Shown here one piece after another: positions 32,002 to 34,184 of a stretch of DNA of 64,000 bases. The translations under genes were made by a program, and so were the position numbers. This DNA is from Haemophilus sputorum CCUG 13788 (GTDB taxonomy: Bacteria > Pseudomonadota > Gammaproteobacteria > Enterobacterales > Pasteurellaceae). The notes under the pieces are model-generated. The model did not search any database. It worked only from the letters and a program-made list of their open reading frames with translations, and was not told where the DNA came from. Location: NCBI RefSeq assembly GCF_000238795.1, contig NZ_AFNK01000035.1, positions 1-64,000 of the forward strand, given 5' to 3'. Every line of letters starts with the position of its first letter. Positions within the stretch are counted from its first letter, which is position 1.

Positions 32002-33346
32002 TAACTTTAAAACTGATACTTTAGATAGCTTATGTGAATTAATCGTGGATTGTCCACATTCAACTCCGACATGGACAACTTTCGGCTATGTAGTAATTAG
32101 AAATCAAAACATCACTGATGGTGTATTAGATTTATCATCACCGAGCTATACGGATTACTCAGGGTACAGAGATAGAACCAAAAGAGCCAGCCCACAAGAA
32201 AATGATATCGTAATCACCCGAGAAGCGCCGATGGGAAGAGTTTGCTTAATTCCTAAAGAACCAATCTGTTGTCTAGGGCAAAGACAAGTATTACTTCGTG
32301 CCGATAGAAACAAAATAAGTGCTGAATATCTCTACTGGTCTCTACGCTCCTCATTTGTTCAACGACAAATTCTAATAAATGAAGGAACAGGAGCAACCGT
32401 TAGTAATATGAGAATACCTGTGTTAAAAGCACTAGAAATTCCGCGGTTAGCATCCATTGAAATAGAAAATAAGAAAGCGAGAGATTTATCTAATATTCAA
32501 AATAAAATCCAACTCAACACCCAAATCAACCAAACCTTGGAACAAATCGCCCAAGCCCTGTTTAAAAGTTGGTTTGTCGATTTCGACCCCGTGCGTGCCA
32601 AAGTCCAAGCCCTTTCAGACGGCCTTAGCATTGAACAAGCAGAGCTGGCAGCCATGCAGGCAATCAGCGGAAAAACACCCGAAGAACTGACCGCACTTTC
32701 ACAAGCCGAGCCTGACCGCTACGCCGAACTAGCAGAAACCGCCAAAGCGTTTCCGTGTGAGATGGTGGAAGTTGATGGGGTTGAAATGCCAAAGGGGTGG
32801 GAATATTGCAGCTTTGGTGATGTTTCAGAATGCTTTGATAGTAAACGTATCCCTTTATCTAAACAACAACGAGAAAAGAGAAAAGGTAATATTCCTTATT
32901 ATGGTGCAACATCTGTTATGGATTATGTAGATGAAGCTATTTTTGATGATATTTATTTATTAGTTGGCGAAGATGGTTCCGTTTTAAAAGAAGATGGAAC
33001 GCCATTTACTCAATACATTTGGGGTAAATCTTGGGTAAACAACCATGCACATATCCTCAAAGGAAGGAATGGTATAAGTACTGAACACTTAATGATATTT
33101 ATTCAACAAACAAATATATCTGCTTATATCACAGGAGCTGTTCAGCTTAAGTTAAACCAAAAAAATATGAATAGTATTCCATTTTTAAGAGCTAATAATG
33201 CAATTAATGCTTTTTTTGCAGAATATATTGAATCTCTATATGCAAAAATCAGAAAAAATTTTGATGAGAATAAAGTATTAGAGGCAACTAGAGATTTATT
33301 ATTACCTAAATTATTGAGTGGGAATTTTTCAAATGGAAAAAACTAA
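31994..33346 (+). CDS. hsdS: Type I restriction-modification system, specificity subunit HsdS
   Basis: Start ATGAGTGA overlaps the hsdM stop. Two target-recognition domains, separated by a conserved central region (LEQIAQALFKSWFVDFDP...) and followed by a C-terminal conserved helix (LLLPKLLSGNF). The target-recognition domains are low-GC. The central region is high-GC and contains a Neisseria DUS. Confidence 0.85.
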   Translation: MSDNFKTDTLDSLCELIVDCPHSTPTWTTFGYVVIRNQNITDGVLDLSSPSYTDYSGYRDRTKRASPQENDIVITREAPMGRVCLIPKEPICCLGQRQVLLRADRNKISAEYLYWSLRSSFVQRQILINEGTGATVSNMRIPVLKALEIPRLASIEIENKKARDLSNIQNKIQLNTQINQTLEQIAQALFKSWFVDFDPVRAKVQALSDGLSIEQAELAAMQAISGKTPEELTALSQAEPDRYAELAETAKAFPCEMVEVDGVEMPKGWEYCSFGDVSECFDSKRIPLSKQQREKRKGNIPYYGATSVMDYVDEAIFDDIYLLVGEDGSVLKEDGTPFTQYIWGKSWVNNHAHILKGRNGISTEHLMIFIQQTNISAYITGAVQLKLNQKNMNSIPFLRANNAINAFFAEYIESLYAKIRKNFDENKVLEATRDLLLPKLLSGNFSNGKN

Positions 33347-34184
33347 TCTTATCGGGAATGATAGAGTCCCTGTTTTAGCAGAAATCAATACATTAGATGA
33401 ATTAAAATCCCTTTTATCTGCTCACTCTTATATATTTGATGAAGAAACGCCTGATATATATAAAAGCATACCATCAACAAGTGAAAGTTATACTATTTAC
33501 GCTCGATATTATCGCGGGCATAGCCGTGAAGATTATCGTTTGCAATCAACTTTAGAGCGATATTTAAAAAAGTTTGATAAACAAATTGATATTGAAAAAG
33601 AGTATGAAAAGCTACAAGGAAAATATCTTGAGCATTGCAAACGTATTCTGCTTAATCAAAGTATTGACGGCTATATTTCATTACCAAGTAACCTTGAAGA
33701 TAACGATATTTGGGCATTTGGACAGCATTATCAATTAAAAACGCCTTTATTAGACTGGACTAAATCTTTCTTTATTGCACTTTATTTTGCTTTTGAGAGT
33801 CATGAAGAAAATCAAAAAGAAAATCAATATCGTGTTATTTATGAATTAAATGAATTTTTTAATGTTGGTGAAAAGCTCATTATTGAACCAATAATTAAAA
33901 TTGGAAATCGTATCAATGCACAAAAAGGCGTTTTTACGAAGTTATCATCTAGGGAATTTGATGAGATTGCCAAAATGAATACAAACTTTGGTAATGGGTA
34001 TGTTTTTCATAGATTAAGTAAAATTCTTATTTCTAATGAATTAAGAAAAGATGTTTTAGCTTATCTTGCCTCAATTAATATTGATGCTTCAACAATTTAT
34101 CCTGATTTATTAGGAAAAATAAAACTTTGTGAAATTGGCATTGATAATGCGATTACAGAGATTAATTTAGAATATCAAGACTAG
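33333..34184 (+). CDS. FRG-domain-like protein of unknown function (~283 aa), embedded between hsdS and hsdR
   Basis: The ATG at 33333 is preceded by gagtggg and overlaps the last 14 nt of hsdS (alternative GTG at 33318). Low GC. Motifs [38 protein letters not shown] and [13 protein letters not shown] correspond, by my recollection, to the FRG, QHYGLPTRLLDWT and R-x-x-aQ-x-G-x-F signatures of Pfam FRG-domain proteins. This was not searched. Confidence 0.5.
   Translation: [283 protein letters not shown]

Follow-up and report, generated by a model that had tools for sequence, protein, structure and literature searches.

Candidate defence families, termed PDCs, have been compiled by 'guilt-by-embedding' from genes found inside BREX, DISARM or type I restriction-modification (RM) loci (Payne, Hughes, Fineran & Jackson 2024, bioRxiv 10.1101/2024.01.29.577857). 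One of these families, PDC-S15, is represented in Haemophilus sputorum CCUG 13788 by a gene for a 283-residue FRG-domain protein, placed in a type I operon after hsdS and before hsdR, and this gene is the subject of the present report. The stretch of DNA analyzed, referred to as the window, comprises 64,000 nt of contig NZ_AFNK01000035.1, and gene positions are given in window coordinates. A literature search for a phenotype, mechanism or domain analysis of PDC-S15 found none, the family being a catalogue entry only. The H. sputorum gene resembles it in full-length profile match and in type I embedding, with no structural difference.

A second point of comparison is PrrC, which sits in the type IC EcoprrI locus and is activated when the T4 protein Stp inhibits EcoprrI (PMC12707154). 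PrrC, which is without an antitoxin of its own, has been proposed to be kept latent by the RM complex (PMC12707154), and is almost exclusively embedded in type I loci (Payne et al., 10.1101/2024.01.29.577857). The likeness to the FRG gene is positional only, in that a single accessory gene lies between hsdS and hsdR. PrrC combines an ABC-ATPase with an anticodon nuclease, whereas the FRG protein is predicted to be ADP-ribosyltransferase (ART)-like and has no homology to PrrC or RloC. Since FRG is its sole Pfam match and no NCBIfam model matches it significantly, the protein can be called an analogue of PrrC at most, and not a member of that family.

A third comparison concerns the 'Frg' clade of the ART superfamily, for which Burroughs and Aravind (2020) are reportedly also a source. 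The Aravind laboratory places Frg in this superfamily as a possible NADase effector, which is a prediction and not a measurement (PMC9503650). The H. sputorum protein shares the motifs of the clade, although neither of the canonical triads, R-S-E or H-Y-E, can be made out in it. An earlier reading of this DNA, referred to here as the original prediction, regarded the gene as new and outside standard annotation; the family was in fact already a PADLOC candidate (Payne et al. 2024) and already assigned to the ARTs (PMC9503650).

Within the window, the list of open reading frames (ORFs) and Pfam matches together delineate a complete type I RM operon on the + strand, with the genes in the order hsdM, hsdS, FRG and hsdR:

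30331-32001, + strand: hsdM, methyltransferase subunit, 556 aa (Pfam N6_Mtase, E=4.3e-124; HsdM_N, E=1.2e-21)
31994-33346, + strand: hsdS, specificity subunit, 450 aa (Pfam Methylase_S, two stretches)
33333-33346, + strand: hsdS/FRG overlap of 14 nt, the translational coupling junction (from the sequence, the FRG ATG lying inside the end of hsdS)
33333-34184, + strand: FRG-domain (PADLOC PDC-S15) gene, 283 aa plus stop, predicted ADP-ribosyltransferase-like fold
33507-33815, + strand: segment matched by the Pfam FRG model, residues 59-161, holding the invariant R61 and G62 (YRG motif), R76, H132 and D141
33909-33935, + strand: third conserved block, R193-x3-Q197-x-G199-x-F201, outside the Pfam FRG model
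34185-34513: spacer of 329 nt between FRG and hsdR, with no ORF of at least 50 aa and one Apl-type uptake signal at 34207
34514-37678, + strand: hsdR, restriction/motor subunit, 1054 aa (Pfam HSDR_N, SWI2_SNF2, T1R_D3-like and T1RH-like_C)

The FRG frame on the + strand is open from 33318 to 34184, and its ATG at 33333 yields the 283-aa product. The 14-nt overlap with the end of hsdS had been predicted and is exact (ATG at 33333, hsdS stop at 33346), and translational coupling to hsdS within a type I operon, likewise proposed, is supported by this overlap and by the complete flanking Hsd genes identified with Pfam. The position of the gene ahead of hsdR was also correctly described, the gap being 329 nt and not 330 bp. 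The closest solved relative of the hsdR product is EcoR124I HsdR (E=2e-33). A promoter and terminator scan returned nothing above shuffled expectation, with no + strand terminator between hsdS, FRG and hsdR.

Membership of the FRG family is clear. In a Pfam scan of the protein, FRG (PF08867) was the only significant family, with 73.7 bits against a cut-off of 25 (E=2.4e-20) and with residues 59-161 aligned to profile positions 4-93 of 94, which is the match that the original prediction had anticipated. In PADLOC, the PDC-S15 model PDLC04940 matches the protein end to end (residues 1-283 on profile positions 1-280; 451 bits, E=3.6e-136), 14 further PDC-S15 models match more weakly (15 in all), and the location of the gene between hsdS and hsdR is the embedding that defines a PDC-S15 gene. 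The full-length match lends support to the earlier suggestion that this is a candidate defence gene. Nothing significant was found for the protein in NCBIfam, where TscT (12.7 bits against a cut-off of 100) was rejected as noise.

The protein contains both the (F/Y)-R-G motif, as Y60-R61-G62, and the QHxGLxTPLLDWT block. The motif peptides quoted in the original prediction are all present, at residues 60-70, 127-153 and 192-204, and had been equated with three hallmark blocks of the Pfam domain; this holds for the first two, which lie within the model, while the third (R193..Q197..F201) lies outside it. Across 111 diverse relatives, R61, G62, R76, H132, D141, F152 and Q197 are invariant, and all seven are present here. 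In the third block, R193 and F201 are nearly invariant over the same relatives, and R193, Q197 and F201 are all invariant in alignment A2.

Homologues in Haemophilus influenzae and H. haemolyticus share 78-96% identity with the protein, are 279-288 aa long and are annotated as "FRG domain-containing protein". Homologues from Neisseria and Rodentibacter are 52-57% identical to it, those from other Pasteurellaceae about 40%. The reading frame is complete when compared with more than 50 homologues, which are 279-288 aa long. An identical protein occurs in 93 metagenome blocks, and four metagenome contigs that encode it carry the genes permease, Band_7, CMD, hsdM, hsdS, FRG, hsdR, a lipoprotein gene and polA, as the window does. 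The family as a whole numbers 26,832 representatives of 50%-identity clusters at E<=1e-3. The ratio of nonsynonymous to synonymous substitution rates (dN/dS) of the FRG gene is 0.16-0.30 against relatives, compared with 0.05-0.11 for hsdM and hsdR. By this measure the gene is under purifying selection that is looser than that on hsdM and hsdR, and it is to be read as an intact, functional gene. No match to Methylase_S (PF01420) was found in the FRG protein at E<=0.01, so it is not a stray target-recognition domain (TRD). The possibility raised in the original prediction, that the ORF is a degraded fragment or an orphan hsdS TRD, runs counter to this result and to the dN/dS values. A tblastn search of 50,697 phage records with the FRG protein gave no match. 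As a separate observation, PHROG 4962 contains an FRG-like region.

The arrangement seen in H. sputorum is widespread. The best 80 FRG relatives, one genome per species, were taken from 185,579 species genomes, and their flanks were searched with HsdM, HsdS and HsdR of the window. Complete hsdM-hsdS-FRG-hsdR loci were found in 25 of the 80, and the same gene order, interrupted by a contig end, in another 6. Other hsd genes lie near FRG in 2 loci, and no type I genes were detected near it in 47. Loci with an embedded FRG gene occur in Pasteurellaceae, Acinetobacter, Bacillota, Negativicutes, Bacteroidota, Alphaproteobacteria, Desulfovibrionia, Spirochaetes and others, and every uncut one retains a full hsdR. 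The hsdS stop lies within about 14 nt of the first FRG ATG in 25 of 28 loci, most commonly as an ATGA overlap. Synteny of hsdS, FRG and hsdR in other genomes, for which the original prediction had suggested a survey, is thus borne out by 25 complete loci over several phyla. The hsdM-hsdS-FRG-hsdR order across phyla, with its tight hsdS-FRG junction, is new in this analysis.

On the other side of the gene, the distance from FRG to hsdR varies among relatives from -8 to 3209 nt. FRG takes the slot directly after hsdS, and other defence-type genes come downstream of FRG and before hsdR. The long FRG-hsdR gaps hold a changing set of such genes, which includes RhuM, Mrr_cat, Abi_2, pentapeptide, DUF6119, Schlafen/AlbA_2-HATPase_c_4, AAA_21 and DUF7380/DUF4209. 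Because the junction is fixed while the downstream genes vary, FRG is tied specifically to hsdS, and the slot after it is the generic insertion hotspot. Insertions in that slot were located at L013:9187-10200, L026:9110-10024, L028:9020-9997, L075:5941-6894, L030:5241-6800, L034:9080-10486 and L077:8434-9717 (locus label followed by coordinates). In one further locus (L014:6037-7863), the inserted defence-type gene or genes lie between hsdS and FRG instead. No conserved ADP-ribose-processing or immunity partner follows FRG in the relatives, in which the downstream genes are variable.

Where FRG lies outside type I loci, its neighbours include a PF14350 "Beta protein" gene in five loci (matched by 5 of the 87 neighbour proteins scanned), together with Shedu SduA_C, CHAT, TPR-S, HNH and T5orf172 genes. 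In four loci (L027, L041, L054 and L072) a gene of ~362 aa, probably of the PF14350 family, abuts the 3' end of FRG at -4 to +12 nt. An Eco57I-type methylase gene lies upstream of the FRG ORF and overlaps it at L006:3610-5136, and probably also at L008:6335-7846, both in Pasteurellaceae.

Embedded FRG proteins outside the Pasteurellaceae are longer, at about 395-430 aa, and the last ~60 residues of these long forms match the extreme C-terminus of HsdR. In Pfam, this tail corresponds to PF11867 (T1RH-like_C) positions about 255-322, with scores up to 53.9 bits against a cut-off of 26.8. A tail hidden Markov model (HMM) built from 24 HsdR tails and applied at a threshold of E<1e-4 was positive for about 17 embedded long forms and for 0 of 47 non-embedded FRGs; among the top FRG family representatives, 15 of 142 were positive. 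Tail-bearing ORFs occur in L013, L014, L022, L025, L029, L030, L034, L037, L039, L040, L044, L047, L048, L069, L075 and others, and the tails align convincingly, with the consensus ...LAxELxxxLxxxxxVDWxxRESxxAxLRxxxxxxLxKYGYP.... The restriction of the HsdR-tail fusion to type I-embedded FRGs may be a new piece of information on the family.

The helical domain at the C-terminus of HsdR has been proposed as the part through which the subunit assembles with HsdM and the methyltransferase (PMC5248579). The presence of its homologue therefore suggests, on sequence grounds, that long-form FRG proteins dock on the M2S1 methylase core as HsdR does. Later work on EcoR124I is said to support a role of the HsdR C-terminal domain in methyltransferase assembly. 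Comparison of each FRG tail with its cognate HsdR tail gave no clear sign of co-evolution (median rank 7 of 23), and co-evolution of the tails is not claimed for that reason. The window protein and the other short forms of Pasteurellaceae and Neisseria correspond to residues 1 to ~280 of the long forms and have no tail. An hhalign comparison of the C-terminal 53 residues of the window protein with the HsdR tail returned a probability of 0.3%, and a six-frame search found no tail remnant in the spacer of the window or of other short-form loci.

The chemistry of the protein is suggested by its predicted fold. An AlphaFold2 model from a 42-sequence alignment reached a predicted local distance difference test score (pLDDT) of 82 and a predicted template modelling score (pTM) of 0.81. 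Its best structural matches are the R-S-E toxins heat-labile enterotoxin A, pertussis S1, scabin and the Rhs toxin TreX, with ~100 core residues aligned; Tpt1/KptA, RES, DarT, Arr, PARPs, C3 and pierisin rank lower. Foldseek searches against PDB and the BFVD viral structures gave no significant match, and profile searches of PDB sequences with the 42- and 111-sequence alignments found no solved relative. The modelled fold is supported by its agreement with the published ART assignment of Frg, and we hold with moderate confidence that the FRG core adopts an ADP-ribosyltransferase-like fold. The nuclease or NTPase fold suggested in the original prediction was not found, the fold matches being ADP-ribosyltransferases.

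Like the ART toxins (enterotoxin A, pertussis S1, scabin and TreX, and also DarT and RES), the predicted FRG core has an arginine that ends the first strand. This is the invariant R61, which is placed like the Arg of R-S-E ARTs. Further candidates for catalytic positions are D141, T143 and S145 after the strand at 140-143, and Q197 before the strand at 199-202. The protein differs from the toxins in that STS and ExE motifs were not identified in it, and in that its core is preceded by an additional alpha/beta unit (residues 1-57) and followed by C-terminal helices (235-283). Because the core is predicted to be ADP-ribosyltransferase-like, consumption of nicotinamide adenine dinucleotide (NAD+) would be the likely activity, and the balance tips slightly towards FRG using NAD+/ART chemistry.

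The history of the locus was examined by blastn of the window locus against five relatives, L001 to L005, which divides hsdS into the following homology blocks:

about 32000-32503, + strand: hsdS TRD1
32504-32802, + strand: hsdS central conserved region
32803-33279, + strand: hsdS TRD2
from about 33280, + strand: hsdS C-terminal conserved region

In the H. parainfluenzae-type loci L003-L005, hsdM, TRD1 and the central region (to 32802) are 95-97% identical to the window at the nucleotide level and hsdR is 94-95% identical, and TRD2 has no match to that of the window. Their FRG block (33287-34171) is only 67% identical, or 57% at the protein level, with a synonymous divergence (dS) of 1.63 versus 0.27-0.29 in the flanks. 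In L001 (H. parahaemolyticus) and L002 (H. haemolyticus), the FRG block is 83-86% identical and both TRDs are unlike those of the window. The window TRD2 (32803-33279) is thus unmatched in all five relatives. It follows from these mosaic blocks that TRD2, on the one hand, and the hsdS C-terminal conserved region plus FRG (from about 33280), on the other, recombine independently. The pattern indicates that FRG alleles are swapped by recombination between near-identical hsd backbones, in the manner of TRD shuffling. The original prediction suggested that TRD2 and FRG arrived as one module, which is not supported: relatives that share the FRG have another TRD2, and those that share the backbone have another FRG allele.

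The observation behind that idea was sound. The FRG gene has a GC content of 0.27-0.31 and adjoins an equally GC-poor TRD2 (0.29-0.32), as had been noted, compared with 0.48-0.54 for hsdM, 0.41-0.50 for hsdR and a window mean of 0.40. The Apl-type uptake signal ACAAGCGGT, which is used by the host genome, occurs in 24 copies in the window and places that genome in the Pasteurellaceae clade with this signal. In contrast, all 3 window copies of the Neisseria DNA uptake sequence (DUS) GCCGTCTGAA lie in hsd genes (32614, 35092 and 36720), as do 3 of the 4 copies of the Hin-type uptake signal sequence (USS), at 30575, 32690 and 34699. These Neisseria and Hin-type signals and a GC content of about 50% mark hsdM, the hsdS core and hsdR as lateral imports, probably acquired via Neisseria or Haemophilus. 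The GC contrast between FRG and hsd is due largely to hsdM and hsdR being high-GC imports.

FRG probably has a role in defence. The form of that role which we put forward, tentatively and with slightly less than even odds, is a NAD-using effector that is co-expressed with HsdMS and provides a second line of defence comparable to that of PrrC. FRG would be translated from the hsdM-hsdS transcript through its coupling to hsdS and would consume NAD+, either as an NADase or through ADP-ribosylation of a phage or host macromolecule. It would act as a latent toxin held in reserve behind the type I restriction enzyme, in the way of PrrC in EcoprrI, and would stay silent while the Hsd complex is intact. 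Should a phage neutralise or overwhelm restriction, FRG would be switched on and the infection aborted. For the tail-less form in the window, guardian-type coupling of this kind is doubtful and is drawn by analogy with PrrC. A wider proposal, that FRGs in general are NAD+-dependent effectors that dock on the type I core via the HsdR-type tail, with the window form a tail-less but Hsd-dependent guardian that resembles PrrC and has a new chemistry, is more doubtful still.

Several observations weigh against a PrrC-like effector. A full R-S-E or H-Y-E catalytic triad could not be mapped in the FRG protein, and a literature search found no experiment on any FRG protein. The 47 of 80 relatives without adjacent type I genes show that the family is not confined to such operons. 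No HsdR-like tail was detected by the tail HMM in the 283-aa window form or in the other short forms of Pasteurellaceae, nor by Pfam in the window form, which makes a physical association with the Hsd complex conjectural for the window gene. Alleles of FRG that are only 57% identical sit in near-identical hsd backbones, so that on sequence comparison FRG is not tightly co-evolving with HsdM and HsdR. Finally, no immunity or antitoxin gene is visible at the locus.

Some of these points are accommodated more readily if FRG is an autonomous, single-gene, phage-sensing defence that is lodged in the hsd operon for its promoter, co-regulation and co-transfer, with no cross-talk to the restriction enzyme. 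We consider this rather unlikely, though it survives better than the other alternatives. It would account for the relatives outside type I loci, near Beta protein, Eco57I-type methylase, Shedu and CHAT genes, for the short form without an HsdR-like tail and for the exchange of FRG alleles independently of the hsd backbone, and it accords with the view that embedded genes are generally independent defence systems (Payne et al., 10.1101/2024.01.29.577857). A passenger of this kind would not be expected to keep a fixed junction, coupled to hsdS in 25 of 28 loci across phyla, when other embedded genes occupy a looser slot, and a docking-tail homologue that occurs only on embedded long forms is hard to explain without interaction with Hsd.

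That same tail raises the possibility that FRG is an alternative, R-like effector subunit, which would occupy an HsdR site on M2S1, be activated when an unmethylated target is recognised, and then either modify the DNA or a bound protein by ADP-ribosylation or use up NAD+ locally. Coupling to hsdS would fit production in stoichiometric amounts with the specificity subunit, and the DNA-targeting ARTs DarT, pierisin and scabin are among the fold matches. This reading is nevertheless improbable, since the window protein is tail-less, every uncut locus keeps a full hsdR, so that nothing suggests replacement of HsdR, and the cognate HsdR tail is not clearly the nearest one to a given FRG tail. Even less probable is that FRG has no anti-phage function and serves instead, as an addiction toxin or a regulator, to stabilise or tune the RM locus, for example by post-segregational killing or restriction alleviation. 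A toxin-like fold and a place inside a mobile RM cassette, found in differing genomic contexts by species, would suit such a role; a cognate antitoxin ORF is missing, as the upstream gene is hsdS and the spacer lacks an ORF of at least 50 aa, and the neighbours of FRG elsewhere in the family are defence genes. A decayed remnant, either an orphan third hsdS TRD or a pseudogene, is refuted despite the low GC that adjoins TRD2, given the strong FRG match, the lack of Methylase_S, the full-length frame, the retained invariant residues and a dN/dS well below 1.

The spacer between FRG and hsdR holds one further feature:

34259-34448: hairpin of about 190 nt, resembling a miniature inverted-repeat transposable element (MITE)

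The hairpin is near-perfect, with inverted repeats of 21 nt at 100% and 21 nt at 90% identity, a minimum free energy of -88.8 kcal/mol and z=-8.5. Its terminal inverted repeats are CTGCCAAATCTCCCCT, and the terminal 16-mer occurs at only these two places in the window, which makes it a single-copy element. The only Rfam match in the spacer, to MIR7533, a plant miRNA precursor, scored 44 bits against a gathering threshold of 230 on both strands and was set aside as spurious, the product merely of a long hairpin. The block aligned with L001 extends through the spacer, and the spacer of L003-L005 is only 90 nt long. Short-form loci of Pasteurellaceae carry differing small insertions between FRG and hsdR. 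For example, L043:6058-6742 (- strand) holds two small ORFs of 104 and 126 aa that resemble a toxin-antitoxin pair, L002:8889-9642 holds two small hydrophobic ORFs, and L010:9323-9811 (- strand) holds a 163-aa ORF opposite to the operon. In the window itself, with hsdS upstream and no ORF of at least 50 aa in the spacer, there is no adjacent antitoxin or immunity gene.

The window gene by itself is nothing out of the ordinary within a candidate family that had been catalogued before, and constitutes a good experimental lead and not a discovery; by its sequence, this copy is without the most informative feature, the HsdR-like tail. The FRG family, with about 27,000 50%-identity clusters, is among the commonest passengers of type I RM operons, and the HsdR-tail fusion of its long forms predicts docking on M2S1. 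If the docking reading is true, type I enzymes would be modular platforms that carry a non-nuclease, 'R-like' immune effector. If FRG is a NAD+-consuming guardian, it would be the second worked case, with PrrC the first, in which an effector keeps watch over whether a restriction enzyme is intact, and ART-fold enzymes would join TIR and SIR2 among the NAD+-depleting effectors of immunity.

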